A DNA stretch of 64,000 bases from a virus (lineage: Duplodnaviria; Caudoviricetes), in IMG/VR virus record IMGVR_UViG_3300032007_000054, positions 1-64,000 of that record. One strand, 5' to 3'. A model generated the notes under the pieces. That model was given only the letters and a program-made list of their open reading frames with translations. It was not told where the DNA came from and made no database searches. Made by a program: the position numbers and the translations under genes. Positions 1 to 59,720 of this stretch are shown in pieces. The stretch's first letter is position 1. The number at the start of each line of letters is the position of its first letter.

Positions 1-47
1 CTCCAAAAATTCCCCGGGGGACATTTGGGGATTCGTTTTATATTTTA

Positions 48-84
48 GAGAGGCCGTGTTAGACGCATGGCCTCTTTATTTTTT
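48..84 (+). terminator. Intrinsic terminator-like hairpin
   Basis: AGAGGCC-gtgttagacgcat-GGCCTCT followed by ttattttttt. Confidence 0.6.
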
Positions 85-208
85 GTTAGAAGGTTCCTTT
101 AGGGGCTTAAAGTGACATTTGTTTCCTTTCGTTCCTGCACATTTGTTTGATGACTTGGTTTTGTACTCCTTTCTAAAGTACTTTGAGCCCCTGAAAGTGC
201 CTTCTAAC
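85..208 (+). ncRNA. Long imperfect stem-loop, candidate antisense sRNA or leader RNA
   Basis: GTTAGAAGG(85-93)/CCTTCTAAC(200-208) and AGGGGCTTAAAGT(101-113)/ACTTTGAGCCCCT(180-192) pair; pyrimidine-rich loop. Confidence 0.45.
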
Positions 209-232
209 TGGTAACAAACTTGAGGTAAGCAT

Positions 233-574
233 ATGAGAAAGAGAGAGAAGGAAATCGATACTCCGGTAAAGCATAAAAGAAGACCGGGAATGTCGGTCGA
301 AGCTCGTGAAAATCAGCTTATTTCGCTTGCCGTAGATCTTGCTGAAAAGCAATTAATGGAAGGAACCGCTTCCTCGCAGGTAATTACACATTATCTGAAG
401 CTTGGTTCAACCAAAGAAAGAATTGAAAAAGAAATTTTGGAAAAGCAAAAAGAGTTGATCGAAGCGAAGACAGAAGCATTGCATTCTGCAAAGCGTATGG
501 AAGAATTGTATGCAAATGCGCTCAGTGCCATGCGTAATTATCGCGGAGAAGAAGACTCAGATGAAGATGAATGA
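233..574 (+). CDS. Conserved phage protein, possible terminase small subunit
   Basis: 113 aa helical ORF, first gene of packaging module upstream of HNH and TerL; function inferred from position only. Confidence 0.5.
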   Translation: MRKREKEIDTPVKHKRRPGMSVEARENQLISLAVDLAEKQLMEGTASSQVITHYLKLGSTKERIEKEILEKQKELIEAKTEALHSAKRMEELYANALSAMRNYRGEEDSDEDE

Positions 575-1005
575 TTTTTATGCGAACATATTCAGAACTA
601 ATTAAGCTTCCAACTTTTAAACAAAGATTCAATTATTTAAAACTGAATGGCATGATCGGTGAAGAAACTTTCGGATTTGATCGTTGGCTGAATCAGGTCT
701 TTTATACTTCTCCGGAATGGCGAAGAGTTCGTGATATTGTTATTGTTAGAGATAACGGAAATGATCTTGGATTAGATGGTTTTCGAATCGGAGGAAAGAT
801 CCTGATTCATCATATGAATCCGATCACCTATCATGATATTGTTCATCGGGAAGAAGACATCCTGAATCCGGAGTATCTGATCTGTGTTTCGCATAGAACG
901 CATCAGGCAATCCATTATGGGAATGAAGATCTGCTCCCTGCGGATCCTGTTGAACGCAGACCGAATGACACTTGTCCTTGGAGGAAAGATGGGGAATCAA
1001 AATAG
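571..1005 (+). CDS. HNH endonuclease (packaging-associated)
   Basis: IHHMNP...LICVSHRTHQAIH HNH-type motif; located near terminase. Confidence 0.8.
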   Translation: MIFMRTYSELIKLPTFKQRFNYLKLNGMIGEETFGFDRWLNQVFYTSPEWRRVRDIVIVRDNGNDLGLDGFRIGGKILIHHMNPITYHDIVHREEDILNPEYLICVSHRTHQAIHYGNEDLLPADPVERRPNDTCPWRKDGESK

Positions 1006-1240
1006 TTCTAAAGGAACTGTAGTTAATTGTCTTTGGTGCTACATCTATGAACGTGAAGATATTTTATCAAATGTATTGGGCGCATTTCCAATGTTGAAAC
1101 AAGTGGACGTTCTGGAGAATTATGCAATAGATCCGTCATTTTATGCTGTTATTACCAACGATGAAAAAATTGGATATTGCCTGAAAGATTATATTGTTTT
1201 ACATAATTATTCCACGATGGGAGAAAGCGATAATGGATGA
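989..1240 (+). CDS. Small SH3-like phage protein
   Basis: ATG 989 with GGAGGA RBS; GTVVNC...FYAVIT...IGYCLKDYI pattern resembles SH3b folds. Confidence 0.45.
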   Translation: MGNQNSSKGTVVNCLWCYIYEREDILSNVLGAFPMLKQVDVLENYAIDPSFYAVITNDEKIGYCLKDYIVLHNYSTMGESDNG

Positions 1241-1577
1241 AAGCATTTTAAATTCAATTAAAAAGCTGCTCGGTATCGCGGAATTCGATACCAGTTTTGA
1301 TCAAGATATTATTATGGATATTAATACGATTTTGGGAATTCTCTGGCAGATGGGGGTAGGTCCTGCATCTCCTTTTCGGATTACGGGTCCGATCGAAACC
1401 TGGTCTGATTTTATGGATGATATGACCAAAATCGAATTTGTGAAATCATTTATTCATCTTCGAGTAGCTCAATTATTTGATCCGGCCACAAGCTCTTCAG
1501 TTGATGAGAGTCGGAATAATCTGATTAAAGAACTGGAATGGCGGCTGTATACGGCTGGAGATAGCGATATTATTTAA
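1233..1577 (+). CDS. Head-tail connector/adaptor-like protein
   Basis: MDESILNSIKKLLGI...ELEWRL, helical gp6-like pattern; ATG at 1233. Confidence 0.6.
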   Translation: MDESILNSIKKLLGIAEFDTSFDQDIIMDINTILGILWQMGVGPASPFRITGPIETWSDFMDDMTKIEFVKSFIHLRVAQLFDPATSSSVDESRNNLIKELEWRLYTAGDSDII

Positions 1578-1900
1578 AATATTATTTTACCAATTATCCA
1601 AAAAAGAAATATGCCCAAAGCAATTGCGATTATTGGTCCTAAAAAATGTAATAAAAGGATTGCAATAGTTTCTCGAGAATCGTTTTTGTCTATTTCTTTT
1701 TGGAGTTTTAATTTTTCGAGTTGATGATCTTGAATTAATTTAATTTGCTTTGTTTTTTCTTTTTCAGCGATAATATTTTGCATTTGGTCTAAATCAAATA
1801 ATAATTTTTTGCCGCAATAAGGACAATATGCAATTAAGTTATCAATGTCTAATTCGAGATTTGCTTTGCAGCTTGGGCATTCCATTGAAATTAATTTCAT
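1574..1900 (-). CDS. Zinc-ribbon plus C-terminal transmembrane protein (moron-like)
   Basis: CPSC...CPYCG zinc ribbon, coiled coil, C-terminal hydrophobic helix; opposite strand to neighbours; AT-rich. Confidence 0.75.
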   Translation of the reverse strand: MKLISMECPSCKANLELDIDNLIAYCPYCGKKLLFDLDQMQNIIAEKEKTKQIKLIQDHQLEKLKLQKEIDKNDSRETIAILLLHFLGPIIAIALGIFLFWIIGKIIF

Positions 1901-1916
1901 AAGAATATTTTATCAT
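1901..1916 (-). promoter_or_regulatory. Extended -10 promoter, probably giving a leaderless mRNA
   Basis: Minus strand reads TG-a-TAAAAT-attctt-ATG; no SD upstream. Confidence 0.45.
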
Positions 1917-1984
1917 ATAAAAACTCAATGGAGATCATATTTGAAGCATCTCCTATTTTTTATTTTAACAGGAGGTGATATAAA

Positions 1985-2659
1985 ATGACATCTGATGAAT
2001 TGAAGCATTGGGGAATTCTTGGCATGAAATGGGGCGTTCGTCGTTATCAGAATGAAGACGGTTCCTTAACAGCTGCTGGTAGAATTCGATATGGTGTTGG
2101 TGAATCAAAAAATTTATCGAATAATATTGGCAGCAAAATGTCTGACGAAGAAATTAGAAAAATGACAAAACGATATCAAGCAGAAGCAGCTTTTTATAAT
2201 GCAAGAAATGACAGTATTAAAGCAGAAGCTTACTATCGAGAATTAACAGCTCCAAAAAAGAAAACGAACACGTTTTTATATAAATCTTTTGTCGAACCAA
2301 CGCAACAATTATTAGGGAAAACGGTTCAGTTTAGTGAATATGGTGCTATTGATGCTTTGTTGAAAAGTTTAGGAATAAATATTCCTGAAAAGTATATGGA
2401 TGATTATATGAAATATGCTTTTAATATTAATAACAAAGACGATAAAGACGATAAGAAAAAAGATGATAAGAAAAAAGATGATAATTCCCAGAAACAGAAT
2501 GACAATAATACTTATAACACTTATAACTATTATACGCAGCCTAACACAAAATCTGAAAAGCAAAAAAAAGAGCCAATCATTGATGGTGATTGGAAAGTAG
2601 TTGAAGATGATTCTGGAAAGACGATCGTCATTTTTGATCCGGATAATAAAGTAAAATAA
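1985..2659 (+). CDS. ELKHWGxxGMKWG-motif virion-associated protein
   Basis: N-terminal ELKHWGILGMKWGVRRYQN; GGAGG RBS; K/D-rich low-complexity tract. Confidence 0.75.
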   Translation: MTSDELKHWGILGMKWGVRRYQNEDGSLTAAGRIRYGVGESKNLSNNIGSKMSDEEIRKMTKRYQAEAAFYNARNDSIKAEAYYRELTAPKKKTNTFLYKSFVEPTQQLLGKTVQFSEYGAIDALLKSLGINIPEKYMDDYMKYAFNINNKDDKDDKKKDDKKKDDNSQKQNDNNTYNTYNYYTQPNTKSEKQKKEPIIDGDWKVVEDDSGKTIVIFDPDNKVK

Positions 2660-4401
2660 TGCTCTCCAATACCGCTACTCCACGCTACTATGGTGAGTTT
2701 CGTCAGAAGGTGTTGCGTGGTGAGATCCCGGTATGTAAAGAGATCTCAATGGAAATGAACCGTATCGACGACCTGATACGGGACCGCAATATTTATTATG
2801 ATGATCAAGCCGTAGAAGGCTTTATTTCTTATTGTGAAAATGAATTGACCCTGACTGATGGCACGGATCTGCATCTCCTGGACACTTTTAAACTCTGGGC
2901 AGAACAGATATTTGGCTGGTATTACTTTGTAGATCGAAGTGTTTATCAGCCCAATCCGGATGGTCATGGCGGAAGATACGTAAATAAACGAATTAAAAAA
3001 CGTTTGATCAATAAGCAATACCTGATCGTTGCACGTGGCGCTGCAAAGTCCATGTACGCGTCTTGTATTCAGTCTTATTTTTTGAATGTTGATACATCAA
3101 CTACGCATCAGATCACAACTGCTCCGACAATGAAGCAGGCAGACGAAGTGCTTTCGCCGATTCGAACAGCAATAACGCGGGCCCGAGGTCCGCTTTTTCA
3201 ATTTTTAACGGAAGGTTCACTTCAAAATACCACCGGAAAAAGGATCGAACGTCAGAAGCTTGCTTCTACGAAGAAAGGTATTGAAAATTTTCTTACTGGT
3301 TCTCTTCTTGAGATCCGTCCGATGTCGATTGCAAAATTGAATGGACTTCGTACAAAAGTAAACACTGTCGATGAATGGCTTTCCGGAGATATTCGTGAAG
3401 ATGTTGTTGGTGCAATTGAACAAGGTGCATCCAAGTTGGATGATTATCTGATTCTTGCAATTAGTTCCGAAGGTACTGTTCGGAATGGTGCCGGTGATAC
3501 GATCAAGATGGAATTGATGGATATTCTGAAGGGCGAATATTATGCTCCTCATGTATCGATCTGGTATTATAAACTGGATTCCCTTGATGAAGTAAATAAA
3601 CCGGAAATGTGGATGAAAGCTCAGCCAAATATCGGGAAGACTGTTACTTATGAAGTGTACCAGTTAGATGTTGAGCGTGCAGAGAAAGCTCCTGCTGCAA
3701 GAAATGATATTCTTGCGAAACGGTTTGGTATTCCGATGGAAGGCTATACCTATTACTTTACCTATGAAGAGACAATACCGCATAGGAAACGTGATTTTTG
3801 GAAAATGCCTTGCGCATTGGGATGCGACCTTTCACAGGGGGATGACTTTTGTGCGTTTACGTTTCTTTTCCCATTACGAAACGGATCCTTTGGTGTAAAG
3901 ACAAGAAATTATATTTCAGAGTCTACACTGCATAAACTTCCAGCTGCAATGCGGATCAAATATGACAGCTTCATGAATGAAGGAAGTCTTGTCGTATTAC
4001 CCGGTGCAGTTCTAAATATGATGGAAGTTTACGAAGATCTTGATGAGCATATTCAGAAATGTCAGTATGATGTTCGTTGTGTTGGATACGATCCTTATAA
4101 CGCCCGTGATTTTATTGAACGCTGGGCACAGGAAAACGGATCTTTTGGTATTGAGAAGGTGAAGCAGGGCGCCCGGACAGAATCTGTACCCTTAGGAGAA
4201 TTAAAGAAACTTTCCGAAGAAGGTATGTTGCTCTTTGATGAAGAGTTGATGTCTTTTACAATGGGTAACTGTATCACGATTGAGGATACAAATGGTAACA
4301 GAAAACTTTTGAAGAAACGATACGATCAGAAGATTGATGCGGTAGCAGCTATGATGGATGCTTATGTCGCCTTTAAACTGAATCGTGAAGCATTTGAGTG
4401 A
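2659..4401 (+). CDS. terL: Terminase large subunit
   Basis: 580 aa; Walker A-like VARGAAKS, Walker B NTVDEW, nuclease GCDLSQGDD, C-terminal KIDAVAAMMDA. Confidence 0.92.
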   Translation: MLSNTATPRYYGEFRQKVLRGEIPVCKEISMEMNRIDDLIRDRNIYYDDQAVEGFISYCENELTLTDGTDLHLLDTFKLWAEQIFGWYYFVDRSVYQPNPDGHGGRYVNKRIKKRLINKQYLIVARGAAKSMYASCIQSYFLNVDTSTTHQITTAPTMKQADEVLSPIRTAITRARGPLFQFLTEGSLQNTTGKRIERQKLASTKKGIENFLTGSLLEIRPMSIAKLNGLRTKVNTVDEWLSGDIREDVVGAIEQGASKLDDYLILAISSEGTVRNGAGDTIKMELMDILKGEYYAPHVSIWYYKLDSLDEVNKPEMWMKAQPNIGKTVTYEVYQLDVERAEKAPAARNDILAKRFGIPMEGYTYYFTYEETIPHRKRDFWKMPCALGCDLSQGDDFCAFTFLFPLRNGSFGVKTRNYISESTLHKLPAAMRIKYDSFMNEGSLVVLPGAVLNMMEVYEDLDEHIQKCQYDVRCVGYDPYNARDFIERWAQENGSFGIEKVKQGARTESVPLGELKKLSEEGMLLFDEELMSFTMGNCITIEDTNGNRKLLKKRYDQKIDAVAAMMDAYVAFKLNREAFE

Positions 4402-4415
4402 GGAGGTGACAGATA

Positions 4416-5183
4416 ATGCTTGATCCTGTTGATGAAAATATTTATCAAAATGATGAATTGAAGCATTGGGGAATTATTGGTATGAAATGGGGTATAAGGC
4501 GTTATCAAAATCCTGATGGCACACTTACTCCTGAAGGAAGAGAAAGATATTTAAAAACCGGTTCTGATGGTAAGAAAACATTAACCGAAGAAGGATACAG
4601 GAAATTTTTTAATCGAGAAAATCAAGAATCAAAATCTGGAAAAGCTAGAAATATCGGACTAATGAGTGGTTTAGTTGGCGCTGGAACTGTTGCGGGATCT
4701 TTTACTCCAATGGGTGCTGCAGGTGGTGCTGCTATTGGTAGTGCTTTAGCAATTGCTGCTGGTTTTGCAGCTATGGATCCGAAAACGAAAAAAGGGTTGA
4801 CTAGAGAAGGTGGTAAATTCTTTTATGATACTGAAACCGGTCAATTAACTGATGAAGCTAAACAAATGATTTTTGATGATACGACTTTTTTGACAGATTT
4901 AGGAGCAAGATGGATTACAGAGCAGTATGATCCAGCAATTCATCCGGAAGTTAGATCCTCTCCAGAATACAAAGTTAGTAAAATGTCAAGAGAAATGAAT
5001 CAAGAATTAAATACTTATATTGCGGAAAATATTTTACCAATATGTAAAGATATGCCTGTCAATGATTATCTATTAAATGAATGGTATTCGGAAAATAGAT
5101 CAAAAGAGGCGGATGCTTATTATAAATATGCAGAGCAATTAAGTAAGAAATATTATGATAGAGCAATGAAAGAACTTAAATAG
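4416..5183 (+). CDS. ELKHWGxxGMKWG-motif protein with hydrophobic segment
   Basis: ELKHWGIIGMKWGIRRYQNPDGTLT; Gly/Ala hydrophobic stretch. Confidence 0.75.
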   Translation: MLDPVDENIYQNDELKHWGIIGMKWGIRRYQNPDGTLTPEGRERYLKTGSDGKKTLTEEGYRKFFNRENQESKSGKARNIGLMSGLVGAGTVAGSFTPMGAAGGAAIGSALAIAAGFAAMDPKTKKGLTREGGKFFYDTETGQLTDEAKQMIFDDTTFLTDLGARWITEQYDPAIHPEVRSSPEYKVSKMSREMNQELNTYIAENILPICKDMPVNDYLLNEWYSENRSKEADAYYKYAEQLSKKYYDRAMKELK

Positions 5184-5196
5184 TGGAGGAATAAAC

Positions 5197-6234
5197 ATGG
5201 CATCCGAAGATAAATATTATATTATTGATGGAACCCTTTTTCATGCCGACCAGGTTGATGAATTGTATCATGCCGGTCGTGTTGGCATGAAATGGGGTAA
5301 ACATTTACCCGGTACAACTTGGTGGAAAGAAGATATTTATGCAAAAGGAATGAAACCTTCTGCTGAAAATTACGATCCAAGTGCATCCATTAAATATCGT
5401 GGTGGAAATAGTGGAAAAGCTAATCCGAGTATTCCTAATAAATATACAACTCAGGCTCTTTATCGTCAAACAGCTAGAGCTCGTTTAGGTGCTGGTCATG
5501 GCGGAAGATCAAATAGCCAGATTGTTGAAGATGGAGCAGGAAAAGGTAAGTATCATACTGTAGCCGGTCGTGCTGGACAGGCAGCTCGTAATGCTGGATC
5601 ATCAGTAAGCAATGCTGCCAAAAGAGCTCAATTTTATGCAACGAATTCTAATGCTCGATCTTGGGCTGGTAAATCAGTAAAAAGCAAACTTTCCAGTATG
5701 TGGAATACCAGTAAGGGTTATGCTACTGATCAGATCAATAAATTTAAAGATTCTGCGAGACAGGCTTATGCCGGTGTTAGAGATATGGTTCACAAATTCT
5801 TTGAAACCGGTAATAAAGATTATCGTGATTCAAAGATTGAAAATACCACTGCATTATCTCATCTTGAGCAGTTGATTAAAAAAGAACAGCGTGAAGCAGC
5901 TCATAGTTATGTAACATCTAAAGTAAAAGGTGGAGTTGGAAACACTATTAATTCGTTTATTCAGTCCGCACAGATGCGTGTTGCTATGGGAGTAAATAAT
6001 TTTCTGAATAATATCGGTATGTCCAAACAGGTTGATAAATTCCTTAGTAAATTTATGGGGAATAGTAAGAAAATTACTGCTCAAAATAATGTTGCAAGAT
6101 ATCAGATGAATAAAACTAATAGTGGATATAATCGTGCAGAAGCTAATATGCAGCCCACTTCAAGTCTTCCGAGAAAGAAGATTAAAGGGTCTACTAAGAG
6201 TGCACGTACACAAGGTTACGGAACAAGAGTTTAA
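5197..6234 (+). CDS. GMKWG-motif basic protein
   Basis: ELYHAGRVGMKWG; basic, G/A/S/N-rich. Confidence 0.7.
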   Translation: MASEDKYYIIDGTLFHADQVDELYHAGRVGMKWGKHLPGTTWWKEDIYAKGMKPSAENYDPSASIKYRGGNSGKANPSIPNKYTTQALYRQTARARLGAGHGGRSNSQIVEDGAGKGKYHTVAGRAGQAARNAGSSVSNAAKRAQFYATNSNARSWAGKSVKSKLSSMWNTSKGYATDQINKFKDSARQAYAGVRDMVHKFFETGNKDYRDSKIENTTALSHLEQLIKKEQREAAHSYVTSKVKGGVGNTINSFIQSAQMRVAMGVNNFLNNIGMSKQVDKFLSKFMGNSKKITAQNNVARYQMNKTNSGYNRAEANMQPTSSLPRKKIKGSTKSARTQGYGTRV

Positions 6235-10922: not shown

Positions 10923-10950
10923 CATTTAAAAACGAAAGGAACATTTAATA

Positions 10951-11364
10951 ATGTTAGTAAAGCGTATTGCATATACTGATTACAATGGAACAAAACGTGA
11001 AGAAGATTTTTATTTCAACCTTTCCAAGGCTGAAATTATGGAAATGGAAATGAGCACCACCGGTGGCCTGACTGAAATGATCAATCGTATTATTGAAACT
11101 CAGGATGCGCCGTCGATTATTAAGGTCTTCAAAGATATTATCATGAAGTCTTATGGTGAGAAGAGCCCTGATGGTAAGCGTTTTGTAAAAACGAAAGAGC
11201 TTGCTGAAGCTTTTTCACAGACAGAGGCCTATTCTGAGCTGTTCATGGAGCTCGCCTCTGATTCAGACGCTGCATCTAAGTTTGTGAACGGTATTATCCC
11301 TGCAGACATGGCTGCGGAAGTGGCTAAACAGCAGAAACAGGCAACTTTGCCTTCTGCTAATTGA
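10951..11364 (+). CDS. Tail assembly chaperone
   Basis: Follows major tail gene; FYFNLSKAE...SYGEKSPDGKRF. Confidence 0.75.
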   Translation: MLVKRIAYTDYNGTKREEDFYFNLSKAEIMEMEMSTTGGLTEMINRIIETQDAPSIIKVFKDIIMKSYGEKSPDGKRFVKTKELAEAFSQTEAYSELFMELASDSDAASKFVNGIIPADMAAEVAKQQKQATLPSAN

Positions 11365-13421: not shown

Positions 13422-13799
13422 ATGATTAAGTTCAGACATCAGGGCAATTTTAAAAAATTGACAAATTACTTTGAACAGTTAAAAGAAACCATGAATCTCG
13501 GCATTTTGGATAAGTATGGTCAAAAAGGTGTTGATGCTCTGAAATCTGTTACTCCGGTACGTACAGGATTGACGAGAGATTCATGGTATTACCAGATAGA
13601 ACATAATAAAGGTTCCGTTTCAATCAGATTTTTAAACTCAAACATTCAAAATGGCCAAAACATCGCCATTATTCTTGACATCGGTCACGGAACACGTGGT
13701 GGCGGATGGGTTCGAGGGCTACATTATATTGAGCCTGCCATTCAGCCTATTTTTGAAGAACTTGCGCAAGCTTCTTGGGAGGAGGTTAAAAATCTATGA
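13422..13799 (+). CDS. HK97 gp10-like tail completion protein
   Basis: TPVRTGLT...W...A.ILD.GHGTR.GG.V.G..YI.PA pattern. Confidence 0.7.
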   Translation: MIKFRHQGNFKKLTNYFEQLKETMNLGILDKYGQKGVDALKSVTPVRTGLTRDSWYYQIEHNKGSVSIRFLNSNIQNGQNIAIILDIGHGTRGGGWVRGLHYIEPAIQPIFEELAQASWEEVKNL

Positions 13800-16700
13800 G
13801 CGATGGACTTCTTGATGAACGTGTTGTTGAGATGCGGTTTGATAATGCCGACTTTGAACGAAATGTTAATCAAAGCATCAAGACAATTGATAAATTAAAA
13901 GAATCTCTGGATTTTGAGAATGCCGGAGAAAGTTTTGAAAATATTTCTGCAGCAGCTGCTAAGTGTGACATGAAGCCTCTTGAGGATTCTCTTGAGGGAA
14001 TTACTGTAAAGTTTAATATGCTTGAAATGGTTGCTGCGAACGTACTTGGCAATATTACAAGTAAAATTGTTGATGCCGGTGCAAAGATGGCAAAATCTTT
14101 GACCGTTGATCAGCTGACAGCTGGTTGGGCAAAATATGACCAAAAAACAGCTGCTGTTCAGACAATTATTTCTGCTACCAGTGAAAGCATCGATGTTGTA
14201 AATCAGAAGCTTGAGAAGTTGATCTGGTTTGCTGACGAGACTTCTTATGATTTTGTTGACATGGTCAATAATATTGGTAAGTTTACATCTGCAGGTGTTG
14301 ATCTTGATACCGCTGTCGACTCAATGATGGGTATTTCTAACTGGGCAGCAGCTTCAGGTGCTGGCATTCAGCAGGCAAGTCGGGCAATGTATAATCTTTC
14401 TCAGGCAATCGGCATGGGCTATGTTGGTCTTACAGATTGGCGTTCGATCGAGCTTGCCAATATGGCTACAAAAGAATTTAAAGAGACTGTTATTGAAACC
14501 GCGCTTGAAATGGGAACCTTACAGCAAACAGCAGATGGTACTGTTAAAACTTTAAATGGTAAATTTGAAGTTACTGCTGAAAACATGCGTAATTCATTAA
14601 AGGAGCAATGGTTCTCAACAGATGTTTTAAATTCTGCTTTGAAAAAATATAATGAATTTGCTAATCTTGTTCACGATCGTCAGGAACAATGGGCTGAAGA
14701 ACATGATGGAGCATATCTTACTGTATCCAGAACAATTCAACTCCTTGAATCAGAAGGTGTTGCAATGGATACACTTGGCGCTAAAGCATTTATGCGTGCC
14801 CAGGAAGCAACAAAATTCTCTGAAGCTGTAGCTGCAACGGCAGATGCCGTATCATCCGGTTGGATGAGAACTTTTGAAATTATTTTTGGTAATTACGAAC
14901 AGGCAAAGAAACTTTGGACTGATTTGGCAAATGACATGTATGATGTTTTTGCCAGTGGTGGCGAACGTCGTAATGATATGCTTTCTGATATAATGCAATC
15001 CAATTATCAGAAAATGCTTAATGAAATGCCAGATGGCAATGAAATGAATGATCGTCTTTACGATAAACTTTATGAGATGACTAAGAATAATCTTGGTGTT
15101 GATGCTGCTGATCAGTTATTTTCAGCTTATACCTCTCTTGAAGATTTATTGAAAGATAATGCTGATTATATATATAATTCATCACTTGAAGATGCATTTA
15201 AACAAGTAGCAGTTGATTTTGATAAAGAGGCAGACGCTGCTTTAAAGTTATCAAAGCAACTTAAAGCGGGAACAGTTTCATTAAAACAGACAGTTCTTCG
15301 TCTTGTTGGCGGACAGTTTGGAAATGAAATTGAAACACAGAAAAAAGAAGTAGAAAAACTTGGTTATAACTATGAAATGCTTAGCGAACTTGCTGAAGAA
15401 TATAAAGCAGGTTTAGAAATTCCATGGGATCAATATCAGAGTGATTTTGTCGAATACTTGGATGAACAGTATTCTTCTTATAAAACATTCGTAAAGAAGA
15501 TTACAGAATTATTGCCAGAAGAAGGATTTTTTGGCAGTTTGACAGAATTTGGCGGCCGAGATAAATTAATTGGCGGATTTCAGAATTTAATTGATACTTT
15601 TAAAAATTTGTATTTAACGATTGTTGAAATTGGAAATGGTATCTCAGATTTAACTGGTTCAGGAAGTTTTCTTGAAAAATTGATTAATGGTTTTTCTTTT
15701 TTTACAAATGTACTCAATTATTCAGATGAGGCATTTGAAGGAGTTCAAGAAGGTATTTATAACTTTTTTCATGGTGGTCTTCAGACGAAATGGAATCGTT
15801 TCTGGCATGGCTATGATGTAAAAGATGTATTAGAAAATAATAAAGCAGCTTTTTCTGGTTTTTGGGGCGATATTGAAAAAGCTCATGTTCCAGGGATGCT
15901 CGATCATATTTTTTCTATATATAAAGATCATCTTGCTGTTTTGCCGGCCAATGTATCTAAGACAATCGAGAAAGTTAGAGTTGAGCTATCAACGTTTTTT
16001 GGATCTATTCCTCAAAAAATAAATGAAATAAAAGAAAAAATTTTTGGGAAATTTGAGATACATGAAGTACAAAGTTTATTTTCAAATAATGTTGATACTG
16101 TCATAACTCATACTGGTGGTCTTCTAAATGATTTAAAAGACAAAATTCGTAGTCTTGGTAATGGTCTTGGTGGAAAGATATTTGACGGATTATTGAATAC
16201 CATCAAAAAAGTCGCTGATTTTATGTTTGGTTATCAAAAGGAAGATGGAACTCCGATTGAGGGCGCTTTTGTCAGAATTTATGATAAAGCAACTGCTTTC
16301 TGGGAAAGACTAAAAGATATAGGAAAGAAACTTAATGATATTTTTAGTCCTGTTAAAGATTTTTTCTTTGGCATAAAAGACGCTGAAGGGAAAATTATTA
16401 AAAACAATATTTTTGGCAAATTTGGTACAGCTGTAAGAATATTAGTTGATTCTCCCGCTTATAAATCGATTCATGATTTTCTATTTGGTCGAAAGAATGA
16501 AAAAGGTGAAACCGAGAAAAAGAATATATTTGGCAAAATCGGGACCGCGATCGATTTAATAGCAAAATCATCGGCATATCAGTCCATTCATGACTTTATA
16601 TTTGGTAAAAAAGGCGAGAATGGGTCTGATGATATCCCGAATTTATTTGGAAAGATCAGCGGATTAATTATACAGATAACAGAATCTTCTGCTTATAAAT

Positions 16701-19700
16701 CAATACATGATTTTGTTTTTGGTGGTGGACAGGAAAACGAGCCAAATATATTTTATAAGATCAAATATGCTGTTCGGGATATATTTGATTCTCCTGCTTT
16801 TCAGGCGATTCATGATTTTATATTTGGTAAAAAGACCACCGATTCCGGAATGAAAAACGCTGCTGGCGGTATTTTTTCAACAAAAGAGCAGCTTGAACAA
16901 TTAAATCTTTTTGAACGTATTCGTGCGATTTTATATGATATAAAAACTTTATTATTTGGTTATGATAAAGAAACATTGAGCATGGATACATTAGAAGAAA
17001 CAGTTGTTCATGTTGATGGTAAATTAACTCCGATTATTCAAAAAATAAAAGATATTACTAAAGCTGTAATAAATGCAGTAAATAATTTTCGTAGATGGTT
17101 AGGACTTGATTGGGAAAAGACTGATGATGGTTTTAAAAGAATTCCTGGTGCTATCGATTCTATAAAAGCAAAATATGATGCATTTGTTTCATCTGAGGCT
17201 TTTCAAACAGTTAAACGATTTATTTTTGGAGAAAAAGATTCTGAAGGAAATGCTATACAAAATAATATTTTTGGAAAACTCGGAATTGCTATTGGGACTT
17301 TAAAAGAGCAAGCAAAAAATCTTCCAGATACTTTTCTAACATTTTTCCTCGGTCCTGTTAATGAAGAAGGAAAACGAACTGAAAATTTATTTAAAAGGCT
17401 TCCTGGTTATATTCAGAAAGCTAAAACTGGAATTATGGATTTTTTTCTTGGACAGAAAAAATATGCTGGACGAATATGGAATAATGAGACGGGACAATGG
17501 GAAGATCGTTATATTCGTGAAGGTAATTTAATAGATCGTTTAAAAGAAAAATTTGAACAATTAAAAGCAGATCATCCTTGGTTTGCTTCTTTTTGTTCTT
17601 ATATTGAAACAAAAATTAGAGATATAAAAAAGATATTTGCAGATGCGAATGGATCTGTTACGACTGCTCTTGAAAATTTAAGAAAATATTTATTTGGCTA
17701 TGATGTAGACAAAAAAGGCGGATTATTTAATTTATCAGATCAAACAGAGCATATTCAAGGGCTATTTGGTCGATTAAAAGAAAGTATATCTTCTGTATTT
17801 TCTGGAAATAAAAAAGAAGGCAATAATTTTATTGAAACTATTTTAGATTTTTTCACAAATAAGAAAATAAACAATCTGAATGTAAATATTGGTTCAAAAG
17901 AGTCTCCAATTGTTTCAGCAATAAAAAGTATTATTTTAACAATTGCATCTCTTAAACTTCTCTTATTTGGAAGTAATTTAAGTGGCTTATTAGCATCTTT
18001 AAAGAGACATTTAGATATTTCTGATTTTATTGATACTCTTGGTGAATTTGCAACTTCTATAGCATTGATAGCAGGTACATTAATCGTATTAACTGGATTT
18101 GTAAAGATTCTTAAAGGAAATTACGAATCATTGAAGATTGCAGGTTGGCTAATACTTGGAATAATGGGTGCTTTGGTTTTGTTCGTGAATCTTATTTCTG
18201 ATATTGAAATTGAGAAAAAAGATGGAACGAAATTTGAAAAATCTGTATCCCCTTGGGTTGTAACGTTGATGACAACTTTAGGCATCATTATTGCTGAAAT
18301 AGCAGCAATAATGGCGATTATGATGTTGGTAGTAAAGATCGCTGGACCAGAAGTAGTTCAAGAAGCAGCTAATATTATTACTGGTATTTTTATAGCTCTT
18401 GCCGTACTTGTTGCTGCTATATCATATGTTCCAAAAGATAGTGATGCAAAAAAGATGGCTACTAAATCGACTGCATTGTTTGGAATAGCGGCGATTTTAT
18501 TAGCTATGACTCCTTTATTATTATCAATGGCTGCTGTATTTGTTAGTTTATCAGTATTGCGACATTTTGATACTAATTGGGAAGCAGAATTATGGGTACT
18601 TGGAGGGATGCTTGGATTTATTACTGCATTTATTGTTTTACTTCAAGTATTGCCAAATAAAGGTGTAAATCTTAGTTTACTTGGAGGACTAGCTCTTATC
18701 GCTATAATGATAAAAGAGCTAGGTGCAATAATTACAAGTTTTTCCTTATTAGCAAAACTTTCTGGATCTTATAGTTATATTATTGCTGCAGCTGCTTCTA
18801 TTGGAGGTTTGTTGGTAGTAATAGGCCTTTTAGCTGCTGGCTTATCAGCTATTAAACCTATAAATGGAAGCGTTATTGCAAGCATTGTAGCTATTGCGGT
18901 TGTTATTGCTGCTATTGGAGGCGCGATATCATTAATGATATCTGTTTCTAAAGATTTGGAAAATATGGATCTTTTGTTGTCCATATTGCAAGGAATGACA
19001 ACTCTTTTACTTGGTATTACTGCATCATTAGTAATTCTTTCTGGAATTAAAAAAATAGATTGGAAAGCATTTGGCTATCTAGGAATGATGATAGTTGCTG
19101 TTGGTCTTTTAGGCGGATTGGTTGTTGCTTTATCTTGGCTAGGAAAGCAGGCTGGTCTTGAAAATAGTTATACTGCAATATTGCCAATGTTAGCTGGTAT
19201 TGTTGAAATTGCTGGGACTATGATAATTGTTGCTGCTGCAATATATGCTATGGGTGCAATCGGAAAAGCTATAGCACCCATGGTTGGAGAAGCTATATTA
19301 ATGATTCTTGGTGTTGTTGGTGTAGTTGGTGTATTAGCAGCAATTCCACAGATTATTGATCATTTTGCTGGCGAAGGAACCGTTCTTGAATCTATAGAAT
19401 ATCTTGTTCAGATTATAGAAACTCTCGCTGGAGGTCTTGGTAAAGCAATTGGAGCATTTATTGGTGGTATTGGATCAGGCTTAGTTGATTCATTTACAGG
19501 AGTTGTTGATTCTCTTGTCAAAGTGGCAAATAAAATAAAAGATGAATTTCTTCCTGCTATTAGTGAATTTACTCTTGAAGATGCTGCCCAGGCCGGTATG
19601 ATGGCAACAATAATGCTTGGAGCCTTTACAGCAGAAGCTTTAGGTGCACTTACTGTTCTTATAGATGCATTAGTACCAAATGGTGCAATTGAAAGCACTC

Positions 19701-22700
19701 TTGATAATTTAATAAAAGTTGCTACAAAATTAAGAGATGAATTCTTACCGGCAATAAATGATTTCTCATCAACTCATGCTGCAAAAGCCGGGTTAATGGC
19801 AACAATAATGTTAGGAGCTTTTGCTGCTGAAACATTTGGATCATTTACAGCACTTTTAGATAATATTACTGGTAATGGCGCAATCGAAAAAGCTTTAGAT
19901 GGTCTTATTTCTATAGCTAATAAATTAAAGGCAGACTTTATTCCGGCAGTAAAAGATTTTTCAACAACTGATGTTACCAAAGCTGGTTATTTATCTGGAA
20001 TTATGCTTGGAGCATTTAAAGCAGAAACTTTTGGCACTTTTTCAGAATTGGTGTCCAGAGTTCAAAAAGACGGACAAATTGATAAGGTCATTGATGGGCT
20101 TGTTAATATAGCTGGAAAATTAAATCAGGACTTCTTACCTGCAATCAAAGATCTTAGTTATACTCATGTTTCGAGTGCTGGATATTTATCTAAGATCATG
20201 CTTGAAGTCTTAAAATCTGAAGTGTTTACAGCCGCTTCAAGTTTTGTTGGAATTTTTGTTAAAGGCGGAGATCTGGATAATGTTGTTACAGGTCTTTGTG
20301 AAACCACTGAAAACTTAAAAACAAAATTCTTGCCGGTTGTTAAAGATCTTAGTGAAGACGACGTCAAAAAAGCTGGATTTATTCCGAAAATACTTGGATC
20401 TGTGCTGAGTTCTCAGGTATTTACTGGTTTAAGTAAGCTTACAAGTTGGCTTACCGGAGATACGAATTACGTTGAACTTTTTGGCAAATTAACGCAGCCG
20501 GACGGCGTAATTGACGGTATCGAATCTTTTTCAAATGCATTAAAGGGCAGAAAATTTGAGGGTGTTTCAGAAGCGTCTAACGCAATGGCATCTGTATTTA
20601 GTTTGCTTGAAATGCTTGGTAATTCGGTAAATATCAAAGAAGATACACATTGGTATGATAAACTGAATATTTTTAGTGATTCCGTATCATTGTCTTCTGT
20701 TGTTGGATCATTAAATGGCATTACTGAAAAAATCATTCCTTGCATTGTTTCTTTACAGGATGGTATGCGAAATGCTGGCATAGATGCTGAATATATTAAA
20801 AATACAATTGGCGTTTATGTTGAAATGCTTAGATCTATTAGTGAAATTGGACAGGATAATTTTGTTCTTAATGAGATTGATATTGTACAAATTGGCCAAT
20901 TTGTTGTTGATGGTCTTCTTATTGCTTTACAAGACGAAACCAACATTTCTAATGTAAAACAGGCAGCAATTAATCTTGGTATTCAGATTAAAGACGGTTT
21001 AATGTTTTCATTGGATGAAAATTCACCTTCAAAAGTAGCTTATGAAATCGGCGCTTTTGTTGCAGAGGGTCTTACAAATGGTCTTCGTGCCGGCGAAGGT
21101 ATGACTTATTCTATGGCTCAGCGATTTGGTGAAGGGACTGCTAAAGCTCTTGAAGAAGGTCTTGGTGATTTTGATAGCGTTTCTCAGCATGCAATCAACA
21201 TGGTTACAATGGATTTGCTTGATGAGAATCGGTTTGACATGAAGAGCTTTGTCTCCGGGTTTAATCGCTTTGGTAATGAAGAGCTTGACTTTGAAGCAAT
21301 GCGGAAATTCCTTACCGATAATTTTGGCGAAGTCTTTGATCAAAACATGATTGACGGATTTGTCAACTCTTATGAGCAGACAATGAGTAAGCTTAATGAT
21401 ACGATCAATGATAAAGACTATGCTGAACTTATGACTGGCATTGCTGCTGGCGATTTTGGCCTTAGTGAAAATACGATAATTGATGCACTGACAGAAGAAC
21501 TTGGTGATGTTAAAGCTGCACGGCAAGCCTGGGAAGATTATAATGATGTAAAAGAAGGTAACCTGAAAATTAATCAGGAACTTTTTAAACAGCAGAAGCA
21601 GAATCCGCCAATGACTCTTGAGCAGTATATGGATATGATTGCTCATGAGGAGGAAGGTTATCAGCGTGCACTTAAAGGTGAATTTGATGAGCTTGCTCGT
21701 CTTAATAATACTACTCGTGCACAGGAAATGGAAAAGGCCGGGTTTAATGCCGAATTACTCCAGGGCAGGTTGAATGAAGGCGGCTTATCTCAGGAACAGA
21801 TTGAAGCTTATATCAAAGATAAAGCTCTTAAAGATTATGAGGCAGAACAGACCCGTCTTGTTGACGATATTATTCGAAATAATGAGGCTGTTACTGAATC
21901 AACCACAGAAGTAGCTGAAGCTCTTAATTTTGATATTGATGATCCTCTTGGTGAAAAGCTTGCTATTAAAGATGCTGCTGCTTTGAAAGAAGTGGCTGGA
22001 GCAGCTGAAGAAGTTGCTGAAGCACAGCAGTCAGTTGCTGAAACTGCCGAAGCAAAGGCCGAGGCTGTTGAAGCAGAAACGGCAGCAGTAGAAGCTTCTA
22101 ATAATGCCAATAAAGAAGCGGCTAAAGTAAATCGAGATGGAGCAGTATTCAAATCTTTAGATAAGGTAGAACTTGGTCAAGCACTTGAAGCATTTCGTGA
22201 AGGTAAAAAGCTAACTGAAGAGCAGACAAGAATTATTGAAAATGCTCGTCAAGCAACAATCAGTGAAGGGGCATTTGGTGTAGCAATTGGTGAAAAAGGT
22301 TGGGCTGACCAGATGAAAAAATGGGGCCTTACCGAAACCAATGCTAAATATTTGGCACATTTTGCTAATTTCTATGATCCAACAACACAATCTCTTGAAG
22401 AATATGTGAAGTGGGTCGAAAAGTCTGATGAAGTTACCGAAGATCTTACAAAATCTACTGAAAATGCTGGTGAATCTGCTAAAAAGACCGGAACATCTTT
22501 AGCGAACATTGCTGATGATGGAAAGGCAGTTGTTGATATTTTCAAGCATGCCTTTAGTACTGATGCTTATAATGAAAAAACAGGAAGTTTTTCTATTGAT
22601 TTTGAAAAAGCTTACCAGGACTCAATTGCTGATGCTGAAAAAGCAGGTGATGAAACACGTAAGAAATATCTTGAAGCATTCTATTCTGGTTTGGGAGAAG

Positions 22701-41907: not shown

Positions 41908-43146
41908 CTATTTTATTTTTTCGATTTCCGACTTTAGCCATTCATCGGATCTTGTAGTATAAACTGATTCTGTGATATCAGTGATTGTATGGCCGACAAT
42001 ATATTTAATTGCATACTCATTCAGTTCGTATTTCTTTGCTTGTGTGACGAAATGATCACGCCCATCATGCGGTTTATGCTCAGGATTCAAACCAAGAGTC
42101 TCTACAATGAATTTCATGTCTTCCCAGAAGTCAGTATAGCGGTATCTATGATATTTTACTTTGCCACTGCTGAAGACTGTTTTTCCTGTAAAAAGATATT
42201 CTGAGTCTGCTTCGACTGATTCATCATATCGTTTTTTAACCAAATCATAGATTTTTGAATGGATCGGTACAGTACGGTTGGTTCCGGCTTTTGTCTTCAT
42301 ACCGCCGATCATGATTCCTTTTTCAAGATCAACATTCTCAAGTCTCAGCAGTTCCATTTCTTTCGGACGCCAGCCGGAATAACATTGGATCAGGATAATA
42401 TCGATTCCTTCATACTTATAGATATTTTCCCAGAGAATTTTCATCTCTTTATCCGTGTACGGGATATGGTGCCGTACATCCGGATCATATTTTGAATTGA
42501 TCAGCATCGACATCTTGAATCCGCGGGAACAATTCTTGTCAACCAGATCATAAGCAACTGCATAATCCAGCATCTTGTTAAAAGTAATCTTGATTCGATC
42601 CTTGATCTGCGGTGTGGCAGTCTTAATAACTCCTTTTCGGTCAATCTTTACTTCATTCATACAGTATAAAATGTGCTTTGGACGAAGCTCGGTTACTTTC
42701 AGTTTTTCTATTTCTTTGCAATAACGCCAGGCACTTCTTGTCGATTCTATAACCGCTTTTCCAGCTTCTTCAAAGAATTTGGAACTCCATTTTTCGTATA
42801 ATTCTCCTACGGTCAGCGCATTTTGGAATACATATGGATTCTTGTTATATTCCAACAGTGCCTGATAAGCATCATTATAGGTTTCAAAATAAGCTTCCGG
42901 CTGCAGAAGTCTGCTTACCGGTTTTCCTTCGTCGTCCTTTCCAATCGTGACCATGGCTCGGAAAGGCTTACGAAGATTCATTCCTTTCAGCTCTGATATT
43001 TGTCCGAAGCCATTTGGCAGCCGGCGCCTTTTTGCCTGTTTTCTTCGTTTTGATGTACTTTCATTTTTCAGCGGATATCCGCAATGCGGACAGCTTATTG
43101 CTTTATCACTTACCGGCAGATCACATTCTGGGCATTTCGTTAACAT
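41908..43146 (-). CDS. int: Tyrosine integrase with N-terminal zinc ribbon
   Basis: Catalytic R (YSGWRPKE), K (GMKT), HxxR (PHDGR), H (VGH), Y (ESVY); CPEC...CPHC N-terminus; RRLPNGFG arm-binding-like segment. Confidence 0.92.
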   Translation of the reverse strand: MLTKCPECDLPVSDKAISCPHCGYPLKNESTSKRRKQAKRRRLPNGFGQISELKGMNLRKPFRAMVTIGKDDEGKPVSRLLQPEAYFETYNDAYQALLEYNKNPYVFQNALTVGELYEKWSSKFFEEAGKAVIESTRSAWRYCKEIEKLKVTELRPKHILYCMNEVKIDRKGVIKTATPQIKDRIKITFNKMLDYAVAYDLVDKNCSRGFKMSMLINSKYDPDVRHHIPYTDKEMKILWENIYKYEGIDIILIQCYSGWRPKEMELLRLENVDLEKGIMIGGMKTKAGTNRTVPIHSKIYDLVKKRYDESVEADSEYLFTGKTVFSSGKVKYHRYRYTDFWEDMKFIVETLGLNPEHKPHDGRDHFVTQAKKYELNEYAIKYIVGHTITDITESVYTTRSDEWLKSEIEKIK

Positions 43147-47377: not shown

Positions 47378-47672
47378 CATATCCTATAATGGCTCGGAGT
47401 TATGGAAGATAGAGAAATAAGGAGAGAAACAAAGAGCTGTTAAAGACGAATCAAGGGTCAGAATTCTGGCCCTTTTAATTTTCGCAAAATTTGCATGCAC
47501 TATAACGGAACTAGTTTACTTTATTAGAAAGGAGTTAAAAGTGGACTGGCCGTTAGAAAAGCAGGAGATGATAGGCAGGAGTAACTTGCTGTTGGGAGAT
47601 AGCTACCCAACAGGTAGAGTATGTCTGAGCCACATCTCCTGCTATTTTTTATTTTTTGCATTTCCTATAATG

Positions 47673-51471: not shown

Positions 51472-51546
51472 TCGCTAAATTTTCATTTCCTAAAATGGAG
51501 AGGCAAGGATGGCCTCTTTTTGTTTTTAAATTAGAAAGGAGTGAAA

Positions 51547-52014
51547 ATGGGAAAACCGAAGTTGAAAAATATGTCATTAGAAGAACTGGAAGAGCAGTTT
51601 GAAGATTTTGATGAAGAAATCGTCCAGGATGTTGAATTATGGGACGAAAAATATGTTGATAGCAGTGATATGCTGCTGAAGGAAATAAATGATCTTTCGA
51701 ATGGTGAAGAAAGATCAAGAGCGATTAAGGATTTGCAGATAATGGAGCAGATCACAAACGAACGGATCAAAGTTCGTAATGAAAATCGTAAAATGAAGCA
51801 AGAGCTGATCCTGAAAGAGGAAGAGCTCAAAAATCAGAAGAAAGCTAATCGATGGGGCATTTTAGCTCAAATCGGAGGAACGATTTTATCGTTCGTAGGC
51901 TATTCGATTCTGTTGCAGAGGCAGAATGAATTCGAAAGCGGAGACAGTTACTCGACAAATGGAAGTCGAGGATTGACTCAGAATATCTCTCACTTTGTTG
52001 GGAGAGGTAAATAG
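51547..52014 (+). CDS. Coiled-coil protein with C-terminal TM, in own promoter-terminator cassette
   Basis: Promoter 51472, hairpin, TTAGAAAGGAGT RBS; terminator AAGGCTATGA/TCATAGCCTT at 52023-52048. Confidence 0.7.
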   Translation: MGKPKLKNMSLEELEEQFEDFDEEIVQDVELWDEKYVDSSDMLLKEINDLSNGEERSRAIKDLQIMEQITNERIKVRNENRKMKQELILKEEELKNQKKANRWGILAQIGGTILSFVGYSILLQRQNEFESGDSYSTNGSRGLTQNISHFVGRGK

Positions 52015-53569: not shown

Positions 53570-53627
53570 ATTAGTAAAAAGCCCGCATGGGCTTTTATTT
53601 TTTCAAAGACGGAAGGAAGGGAAACAA

Positions 53628-53993
53628 ATGAAAAAGTTATGGAGTAAGATAAAAAATCTGGCGAAGAAGTTCTGGGAGAAGCTTCAGGATGCATGCATCT
53701 GGATCGTCAAAATGGTGAAGAAACTGATCGAATGGTGCATGAATAATCAGGAGGTCGTATATTGCGGTGTATTTGCAGCATCATGCGCGAATACGATTTA
53801 TAAGAAATATCGCAAGACAAAGTCTGAAAAAGAGCTGGAATTTCATCGGAATAACCTTTATGACCGCAGTATGGGGCATTACTGGCAGCTGAGGCGCAGA
53901 CTTACCTCAGACGAAATGCGTGAATTGGAACAGCGGAAGTATTATGGCGAGAGCATGGGAGATATTCTGGAAAGTATGAAGGTGCTCGCATAG
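53628..53993 (+). CDS. Conserved phage protein
   Basis: YDRSMGHYW.LRR.L...E...GES.GDIL motif. Confidence 0.65.
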   Translation: MKKLWSKIKNLAKKFWEKLQDACIWIVKMVKKLIEWCMNNQEVVYCGVFAASCANTIYKKYRKTKSEKELEFHRNNLYDRSMGHYWQLRRRLTSDEMRELEQRKYYGESMGDILESMKVLA

Positions 53994-55152: not shown

Positions 55153-55174
55153 AAACGAAAGGAAACAAATCAAA

Positions 55175-55960
55175 ATGGGAATTAATTTTATGAAGGATGC
55201 TGTGAAGGGCCTGTGTACCTTTGCCAAGGTAAATGCAGGTCCGATCTCGACAGTAGCGGTGATCCTTGGTATGGTCACCGCTTTTTCTTTAGCTGCCAAA
55301 GCAGGAAAGGAAGCGGCTGAAGATATTGAGGAAGCGAAGGAAGAGCTGGAGGTTGAGGAATTAACACTCGGCGAAAAAGTAAAGTTTACCTGGAAGCGGT
55401 TTTTACCGGCAGTGTTTGTGCTGCTGCTGACCATTACAAGCTTCGTATATACGACCCGGCAGATGGCAAAGCGATATGCTGCACTGTCGGCAGCTTATAG
55501 TTTGACTGAAAGTTATCTGAAAGATTACATGGATGCAACAAAAGAAGCTGCCGGTCAAAAGAAAGAGCAAACGATTCGTGATGCTGCAAATGTAAAACAG
55601 GCAAAAAAGTATCCGATCGAACGTGGTGTTATTGAAACCGGGTACGGTGATGATCTGTTTTTTGATGAAGTGATCACAACTAGATATTTCAGATCAACAC
55701 TGGATCACGTACAAGCAGCAGAAAAAGAGCTTGCCAGTATTTATCAGGCTGAAGATTCGATTACCATGGATGATTACACATTCCGGATGGGACTTGGTAC
55801 ACGATCAAATAACGGAAATAATCTTGGTTGGAAAAAATCAGGAAAGCTTGATGAAACAAATAAGTTCTTCCTGTATTATACAGCAGCGATCAGTGACAGC
55901 GGAGAACCGTATATCATTATCAGTCAGGGCCCAAACCGTATGACTGATCTTATGCGGTAG
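55175..55960 (+). CDS. DUF6353-like membrane-anchored protein
   Basis: TM start; ETGYGDDLFFD...RYFRS...LGW. Confidence 0.65.
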   Translation: MGINFMKDAVKGLCTFAKVNAGPISTVAVILGMVTAFSLAAKAGKEAAEDIEEAKEELEVEELTLGEKVKFTWKRFLPAVFVLLLTITSFVYTTRQMAKRYAALSAAYSLTESYLKDYMDATKEAAGQKKEQTIRDAANVKQAKKYPIERGVIETGYGDDLFFDEVITTRYFRSTLDHVQAAEKELASIYQAEDSITMDDYTFRMGLGTRSNNGNNLGWKKSGKLDETNKFFLYYTAAISDSGEPYIIISQGPNRMTDLMR

Positions 55961-56055
55961 ACTCGCGAAAAAAACATGGCCTTTAAAGAGAGACAAACAG
56001 TCTCTCTTTAATTTTGTTAGTTATTGTTATGTGTAAAAAAGAAAGGAAACAAATT

Positions 56056-56445
56056 ATGGCAGAAAGTGATGTTATCGTTGAAAACGGCGAAGTTGCGCCG
56101 TTCGATATAGAAACCCAGGAAACTGGGATTGTTCCCGTGAATAACGGGGAAATTCAAGAAGTGACCGCCGGTCAGGCGGCCGTTGTATTAGGAACCACCA
56201 TGCTGGTGGGATATGGAATCGGCAAACTCGGTGAGTTTGTCTTTGATAAATGGGTTGGTCCAGCTTGTGGAAAGCTGGCTGACAAATGGAAAGAGCGTAA
56301 GGAGAGAAAAAACGCTAAGAAGCTGAAAGATCAGGTCGAAGTGACCGTGATTAAACCGGATGAATCCGAAAGTTCTGAAGAAGAACAGAAGGATAAATAT
56401 GAAAAAGCGTCGGAGAAGATTCGCGCAAATGGATATAAGAAATAA
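56056..56445 (+). CDS. Membrane-associated hypothetical protein in own cassette
   Basis: Promoter 55963, hairpin 55986-56009, GAAAGGAAAC RBS, terminator ~56470-56505. Confidence 0.65.
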   Translation: MAESDVIVENGEVAPFDIETQETGIVPVNNGEIQEVTAGQAAVVLGTTMLVGYGIGKLGEFVFDKWVGPACGKLADKWKERKERKNAKKLKDQVEVTVIKPDESESSEEEQKDKYEKASEKIRANGYKK

Positions 56446-59516: not shown

Positions 59517-59720
59517 ATGGAAGCTTTGTATAAGAATAAATTTGAACGATTCCCGGCAGAGCAGTTGGAAAGCGATGCACTGGTGAAAGTCGGTGAGCGT
59601 CACGAAATGTATCTGAATGGCGGAACCTATCTGATTAAAAACGAAATGACCGGGCAATTATATCCGATCAGTAAAGAACTTTTTGAGTATTTATTTGAGA
59701 AAGAGGAAACAAATGAGTAA
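59517..59720 (+). CDS. Small hypothetical protein
   Basis: GAGGTG RBS; G..YPI.KELFE..F. Confidence 0.55.
   Translation: MEALYKNKFERFPAEQLESDALVKVGERHEMYLNGGTYLIKNEMTGQLYPISKELFEYLFEKEETNE

Follow-up and report, generated by a model that had tools for sequence, protein, structure and literature searches.

The analysed window comprises the first 64,000 nucleotides of a 90,166-bp phage contig (G000), nearly all of whose genes lie on the + strand. The phage is a rumen Clostridia phage with a cos-type HNH/terminase packaging module, in which the gene order from the left end is gp1, HNH endonuclease, connector protein, TerL and portal. Relatives in bacterial genomes indicate Clostridia as hosts (Lachnospiraceae, Ruminococcus, Blautia, Hungatella and C. 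leptum), and no close DNA relative was found among 50,697 deposited phages. The left cohesive end (cos; positions 1–31, + strand, recognized from contig starts and from the ends of cultured phages) carries a conserved A-run and a CCGGGGG palindrome. It is followed on the same strand by an intrinsic-terminator-like hairpin with a T-run (46–84), by a long hairpin with arms at 85–113 and 180–208, by gp1 (233–574) and by the HNH endonuclease of the cos-packaging module (571–1005), so that the long hairpin, which is the subject of this analysis, lies between cos and the conserved gp1–HNH–terminase module. Further downstream, the tail region contains a single ORF of 3,932 amino acids (13796–25594), presumably a giant tape-measure or tail protein, and one of the few minus-strand genes encodes a tyrosine integrase with an N-terminal zinc ribbon (41908–43146, − strand); no HTH repressor was detected by Pfam among the neighbours of the integrase.

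Judging from contig and phage ends, the physical left end at cos coincides with window position 1. For the gp1 homologues in IMG/VR, 3 kb of flank was requested on the upstream side, but many contigs stopped 130–310 nt upstream, and at least 13 independent viral contigs have their first base only a few nucleotides away from the A-run/CCGGGGG motif with which the window starts. Similar first 20–30 nt form the determined left ends of the Gordonia phages Secretariat and Avazak, of Arthrobacter phage Shepard, of Streptomyces phage Bing and of Rhodococcus phage ReqiPepy6. Three contigs that cross the junction (L001, L002 and L003) have 9 nt between the end and start sequences of this contig, which are probably the cohesive overhang. 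At the end of the genome (G000:C1:90120-90166), the last gene has a stop codon that overlaps with a conserved G-run/C-run hairpin.

Downstream of the hairpin, its conserved neighbour gp1 is a helical protein of 113 aa (phrog_4259). It has no Pfam match, its PHROG entry is 'unknown' and the ESM Atlas yields 'hypothetical protein' alone. Its AlphaFold2 model (pLDDT 76) consists of a helix and a long helix and has no match in the PDB and no structural match to any terminase. Its homologues number thousands, all annotated as 'hypothetical', with a nearly invariant GTASSQVITHYLKLGSTKE block; the N-terminus is basic and the tail acidic. The HNH endonuclease always adjoins gp1, in Firmicutes and Actinobacteria phages alike. 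Its role may be that of a small terminase, or it may bind RNA as a partner of the hairpin.

The arms of the hairpin (85–113 and 180–208, + strand) were located by folding, family alignment and covariation, and folding predicts that the pyrimidine-rich apical region between them (114–179) is mostly unpaired. The stem consists of 24 Watson–Crick pairs, three T–G, one C–A and one T–T. The RNA minimum free energy of 70–225 is −46.9 kcal/mol (z = −4.77), a value that none of 200 shuffled sequences equalled, and that of 85–208 alone is −42.9 kcal/mol, which confirms the long stem described in an earlier note on this DNA. The only hairpins reported by a terminator scan are at 11–31 and 46–78, and the conserved hairpin does not qualify as an intrinsic terminator, there being no T-run after position 208. 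The terminator-like element at 46–84 is an insertion between cos and the conserved hairpin in this clade, is absent in most relatives and differs among close relatives (L002:2770-2810); because of it, the conserved hairpin begins 84 nt from the end here, compared with 33–50 nt from the cos end in most relatives. A cmscan search of positions 1–1200 against Rfam 15 with E-values of up to 10 gave only chance-level matches, membership being defined as a score at or above the family gathering threshold and the models searched including C4 antisense RNA, RsaE/RoxS, Clostridiales-1 and phage motifs; the top score was for a plant miRNA precursor model (24.5 bits against a threshold of 122). A literature search found no earlier description of the hairpin.

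The hairpin belongs to a very large family, a fact that the earlier note had missed, together with the position of the hairpin as the cos-proximal leader of the conserved gp1–HNH–terminase module. Of 80 viral loci, 64 have a homologous hairpin upstream of their gp1 homologue, as located with a symmetric inverted-repeat finder. These amount to 44 distinct sequences, the one from this window included, with arms of 25–47 bp and loops of 31–105 nt. In a sequence-only MAFFT alignment of 37 hairpins, RNAalifold found compensatory double changes in all 19 of 19 pairs, and 93.2% of cells were paired, compared with 28–50% when the partners were slid by one to three columns; none of 500 shuffles reached the observed values. 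A covariance model built from this alignment matched 50 of 62 independent bacterial-genome loci, always on the gp1 strand and 60–250 nt upstream of gp1, with one strong match per complete phage genome. These bacterial loci are prophages of Lachnospiraceae, Ruminococcus, Blautia, Hungatella and C. leptum, and the hairpin occurs in prophages of the cultured strains Hungatella hathewayi DSM 13479 (−50.2 kcal/mol, z = −6.3), Blautia faecis DFI.3.66, Blautia glucerasea MSK.18.94 and Clostridium leptum DSM 753. In Arthrobacter phage Shepard the hairpin is longer still (−68.8 kcal/mol, z = −8.6) and precedes gene 1 by about 90 nt; its loop contains the same motif, which is unpaired. No recognisable copy was found in Streptomyces phage Bing or in the Gordonia and Rhodococcus phages examined. 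The distance from the hairpin to the end exceeds 280 nt in L048, L021 and L033 and is about 410 nt in Shepard, and in all four the hairpin stays just upstream of gp1 despite its distance from cos.

Since inverted repeats covary whether they act as RNA or as DNA, the asymmetry of the stem mismatches was used to tell the two apart. G·T mismatches are valid G·U pairs only if the + strand folds, and A·C mismatches are valid only for the minus strand; the two were given identical scores when the arms were located. The 44 distinct viral hairpins contain 181 G·T, 28 A·C and 34 other mismatches, and the 48 independent bacterial-genome hairpins 174, 29 and 27, respectively, whereas base composition predicts a G·T:A·C ratio of about 1.2. 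The excess of G·T over A·C therefore shows that the + strand is under selection as a single strand. The + strand also always receives the higher score from the covariance model (for example, 99.5 versus 39.6 bits). From these comparisons, the folding molecule would most simply be RNA in the late-gene sense, with single-stranded + DNA as the alternative.

The only invariant columns of the alignment are those of an 8-nt pyrimidine loop motif, which is found in 45 of 48 independent loops and is an exact piece of the 3′ tail of Firmicutes 16S rRNA (anti-Shine–Dalgarno; anti-SD). Many loops have a second CCUCC-type copy, and up to 11 nt of the 16S tail are present in several (L030, L042 and L062). 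The predicted unpaired probability is 0.78 for the anti-SD motif and 0.52 for the remaining loop. In the present phage, segment 1 of the loop (116–136, + strand) aligns with this invariant motif and is the antisense of a 21-nt ribosome-binding site (RBS) plus ATG common to a family of genes; it is 100% conserved in L001 and L002 despite differing arms and differing remaining loop. A partial direct repeat of its 5′ part, antisense to the spacer and start codon, is read at 139–148 (+ strand) and is partly conserved in L001. Segment 2 (165–176, + strand) is a further anti-SD sequence that resembles the 16S 3′ tail and is absent from the closest relatives.

All of the antisense matches listed in the earlier note exist, and there are more and longer ones elsewhere in the genome. 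On the + strand of the window, the candidate targets of segment 1 are the initiation regions of genes 55175 (55154–55177; 17 nt exact at 55154–55170), 56056 (56041–56058; 14 nt at 56041–56054), 53628 (53620–53630; 11 nt including the ATG), 59713 (59704–59715; 12 nt including the ATG) and 10951 (10931–10953; 11 nt at 10931–10941), the last of which is a conserved gene of the structural module (phrog_4282). The orthologues of 56056 and 53628 in G001 keep the same RBS flavour. Beyond the window, the same genome has further matches at 78880–78900 (21 nt, including the start codon), 66267–66281 (15 nt), 73929–73942 (14 nt) and 71832 (11 nt). Segment 2 matches 12 nt at each of genes 51547 (51531–51549, + strand) and 47541 (47524–47543, + strand).

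To judge these lengths, the initiation regions of 124 crudely called gene starts were compared in pairs, giving a best shared substring with a median of 9 nt and a maximum of 17 nt. The reverse complement of 114–139 reaches 21 nt, with five matches of at least 14 nt, and exceeds every real initiation region, so that for segment 1 the match lengths are above background and, in this clade, go beyond generic SD complementarity. The earlier note had singled out both loop segments, and only the first of them stands out: segment 2, with a maximum of 12 nt and two matches, is within the top fifth of the initiation-region background, and since it is near background and absent from the closest relatives it counts for little. 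As controls, a loop that was reversed but not complemented and the opposite strand of the genome gave zero or one match. Chance as the source of the hairpin and of the matches was considered and is excluded by the reversed-loop, slid-partner/shuffle and initiation-region background controls. In the family of at least eight genes that share one extended RBS-plus-ATG, the reverse complement of 114–139 is thus the most central sequence. The functions of the target genes are mostly unknown, apart from one dUTPase, and have no common theme. Several genes of the shared-RBS family directly follow terminator-like T-runs. On the minus strand the loop contains, as had been noted, a three-codon ORF (11 codons from an upstream in-frame ATG), which is not conserved in relatives. 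A small + strand ORF across the hairpin was also considered and rejected, as it has 27 codons in L002 and is in another frame or absent here.

Complementarity between loop and RBS was then compared across six complete genomes, namely that of this phage (G000) and five more (G001–G005). In the five further genomes the reverse complement of the loop matches 11–18 nt at many gene starts, and in all six the matches are almost only on the coding strand, at RBSs. A cross-matrix of loops and RBSs falls into two blocks, in which the loops of G000 and G001 match the RBSs of G000 and G001, and the loops of G002–G005 match those of G002–G005; the variant loop of G003 fits its own genome best. The orthologue of gene 10951, located 9–11.5 kb downstream of the hairpin, has a loop-matching RBS in all six genomes, and from one block to the other the bases flanking its SD change along with the loop. 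In G000 and G001, five orthologous targets keep the extended RBS at 32–54% protein identity (85% for the structural gene), which suggests a co-regulated set, whatever the regulator. The duplexes between real loops and initiation regions have mean energies of −14 to −16 kcal/mol compared with −10.4 to −12.9 kcal/mol for shuffled loops, so that the pairing proposed in the earlier note is stronger than in shuffled controls.

Two further expectations of that note hold in part. Co-variation of the loop with its target RBSs is seen between G000/G001 and G002–G005 and in another clade (G008), but not in G006 and G007, while G009 is ambiguous; altogether, the loop–RBS co-variation represents about two or three evolutionary events. 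Because the flanks of the motif in G006 and G007 are not mirrored in their RBSs, what the loop has family-wide is a generic anti-SD of 8–11 nt, which would bind late and host SDs as well. The proposed targeting of early and middle genes appears as stronger pairing with non-structural genes, a bias that is significant in G000 and G003 and not in the other four of the six genomes. For the role in the lysogen that had also been suggested, the one argument is that no obvious repressor adjoins the integrase. A scan of the collection for the 17-nt RBS flavour found it in at least 118 contigs, mostly unrelated; it is a generally common form of RBS, and the scan is therefore no help in defining the clade.

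In a bovine-gut metatranscriptome run (X1), contigs identical to positions 1–6000, with the first 200-nt bin included, were present at a depth of 3–8; they are unstranded and their depth is low and flat enough for carried-over DNA, so that they weigh neither way on transcription. An A/G-rich low-complexity stretch (2444–2485) had a very high X1 depth from unrelated contigs, which is a repeat artefact and not expression. A promoter scan found no sigma-70-like promoter on the + strand upstream of the hairpin. In relatives, a semi-conserved element resembling a −10 box was found by eye 12–20 nt upstream of the gp1 SD; there is no room for it in this clade. With a terminator-like hairpin before it and no U-tract after it, the conserved hairpin is not a self-contained sRNA gene, and as the terminator-like insert follows cos, transcription from the right end across cos would need read-through or antitermination.

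The explanation that we favour, tentatively and in the view that it could nearly as well be right as wrong, is that the hairpin is a predicted leader or processed RNA that pairs with RBSs of the phage and lowers their translation. It builds on the structure, the strand that folds, the conservation, the predicted accessibility of the loop, and complementarity that has been retained and has partly co-varied. In this mechanism, a structured + strand RNA would head the packaging/structural (late) block just inside the cos left end, its stem of about 30 bp presenting a single-stranded pyrimidine loop with one to three anti-SD or anti-initiation-region sequences. The RNA would probably arise as the leader of gp1 mRNA, possibly freed by RNase III cutting of the long stem, and would act in trans. 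The partners of its loop would be the SD and start-codon regions in a set of phage mRNAs, which here may comprise at least eight genes with one extended RBS, mostly in the replication/nucleotide-metabolism half, and one conserved gene of the structural module. Such pairing would either keep the 30S subunit from binding or yield duplexes that RNase III can cut, and the effect would be repression at late times.

A broader form of this mechanism, unlikely as it stands though worth serious attention, is that a mimic of the 16S 3′ tail on a late-transcript hairpin serves as a stoichiometric 'SD sponge', withdrawing the strongest SD sites of early phage and host mRNAs. This would amount to an RNA-based early-to-late translational switch, carried by a very widespread class of RNA in the cos/HNH siphophages of Clostridia and some Actinobacteria, and some lineages would have extended the loop to a 21-nt guide for a dedicated regulon.

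The cos-proximal site and the large family also open up cis-acting and packaging-related explanations. Anti-SD elements are common in 5′ leaders, such as the expression platforms of riboswitches and RNA thermometers, and the hairpin could likewise be a cis-acting leader of gp1 or of the late transcript that stabilizes or processes the mRNA (by blocking RNase J or as an RNase III site), or whose loop contacts the gp1 SD in a long-range kissing interaction or pseudoknot and throttles translation. We regard this as unlikely, but by no means to be dismissed. The hairpin is always 16–124 nt upstream of gp1 and follows gp1 when insertions part it from cos (L048, L033, L021 and Shepard), most clades have a strong conserved gp1 SD that could form about 9 bp with the loop motif, and gp1 is among the top eight predicted loop partners in G002. 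However, the gp1 SD of this clade has no complement in the loop, whereas other genes match it over 14–21 nt; an anti-SD in a separate and very stable hairpin 70–120 nt upstream would be an unusual build for SD sequestration in cis; the invariant loop motif would be superfluous for a mere stabilizer; and gp1 is kept without the hairpin in Gordonia and Rhodococcus phages. Another explanation is a DNA packaging element like lambda cosB, in which the small terminase (possibly gp1) would bind the arms as inverted sites and the pyrimidine tract would be a bend or a site for a host factor. The hairpin is at about +35 to +210 from the physical left end, as cosB would be, its inverted repeats 35–70 bp apart resemble R3-I1-R2, it adjoins the HNH/terminase module, and gp1 is small and helical with its basic N-terminus and acidic tail. 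This explanation is nevertheless improbable, as a G·T:A·C ratio of about 6:1 in two independent sets is unexpected for duplex sites, where strand symmetry would be found, the arms covary instead of keeping a fixed sequence, and insertions of 250–400 bp part the hairpin from cos in several relatives, so that the spacing is not fixed. Furthermore, the most conserved part is the anti-SD motif, and gp1 has no structural match to any terminase.

The resemblance of the loop to rRNA could instead reflect a protein-binding decoy, which mimics the 16S 3′ tail in order to titrate or recruit a factor such as a host nuclease or toxin, an initiation factor or gp1. The identity of the invariant 8-mer with the Firmicutes 16S 3′ end, which extends to 11 nt in several loops, and the strict synteny of the hairpin with gp1, a protein of unknown function, are in keeping with a decoy. 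The loop of this clade, however, has drifted from the 16S tail and yet stays a perfect complement of the RBS family, which favours RBS pairing over pure rRNA mimicry, and the base 5′ of the core is U in most clades, compared with C in the 16S tail, and so fits the commonest phage RBS; we consider a decoy highly improbable. Finally, the matches might arise because the minus strand is itself an initiation region, either a real or relic RBS for a mini-ORF or a stabilizer of the STAB-SD type on a leftward transcript. In this clade the minus strand does carry a perfect RBS plus ATG, and ORFs of two to six codons are found there in some relatives, but this origin can hardly be credited: the mini-ORF varies in length and sequence or is missing in relatives, no minus-strand gene lies downstream, the minus strand cannot fold with the stem mismatches observed, so that the SD-like sequence is on the strand that does not form the stem, and in other clades the homologous motif is an anti-SD that has no start codon.

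If the RNA is made and pairs as predicted, reprogramming of translation by RNA would be common among temperate gut and rumen phages; to our knowledge, nothing of this kind has been described for phages of Gram-positive bacteria. Should the hairpin instead prove cis-acting or packaging-related, it remains a new structured motif with strong covariation and no counterpart in Rfam. Its sequence also marks with precision where, close to cos, the late block begins in thousands of uncultured phage genomes.

Several known systems share features with the hairpin. The cosB site of lambda is made up of binding sites for gpNu1 and IHF (R3-I1-R2-R1) and works as duplex DNA whose distance from cosN is fixed. 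The hairpin similarly follows the cos nick site and precedes the first packaging gene, its inverted repeats being tens of base pairs apart, but it differs in its strand-asymmetric G·U pairs, covarying arms and variable distance from cos, which argue for RNA. In Bacillus, 5′ stabilizer hairpins and STAB-SD sequences protect transcripts as stable structures or SD-related leader sequences that do not initiate a gene, STAB-SD being a sense SD that binds 16S rRNA; here, in contrast, an anti-SD is on the sense strand. Small RNAs of Firmicutes, such as RNAIII and RsaE of S. aureus and RoxS of B. subtilis, bind the SDs of several mRNAs through pyrimidine-rich loops, and the duplexes are often cleaved by RNase III. 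Unlike the hairpin, they are host-encoded and have short stems, terminators of their own and UCCC/CCCC seeds, and the hairpin has no Rfam match. In phage T4, the endoribonuclease RegB and the translational repressor RegA shut off early mRNAs via their SD or initiation regions (PMC3014915); both are proteins, whereas the effector proposed here would be an RNA. In phages P1 and P7, the c4 antisense RNA has loops complementary to the region where ribosomes bind a phage mRNA, and it blocks translation of this mRNA (Citron & Schuster 1990, as reviewed in PMC12197685). This RNA is processed from a longer transcript, has one target operon (icd-ant) and serves immunity, and is known from enterobacterial myophages (PMC12197685). 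It is a discrete RNA of about 77 nt that comes from the operon of its target. The present loop is likewise complementary to the RBS regions of phage mRNAs, with exact matches of 21, 17, 15, 14 and 14 nt. It differs from c4 in its many putative targets, its location at the cos-proximal head of the late block, its 30-bp stem and its generic anti-SD core, and it shows no similarity to the Rfam C4 model. By analogy, the c4 RNA of P1 and P7 would be the closest precedent for the hairpin, and RegB and RegA of T4 its closest functional analogues.
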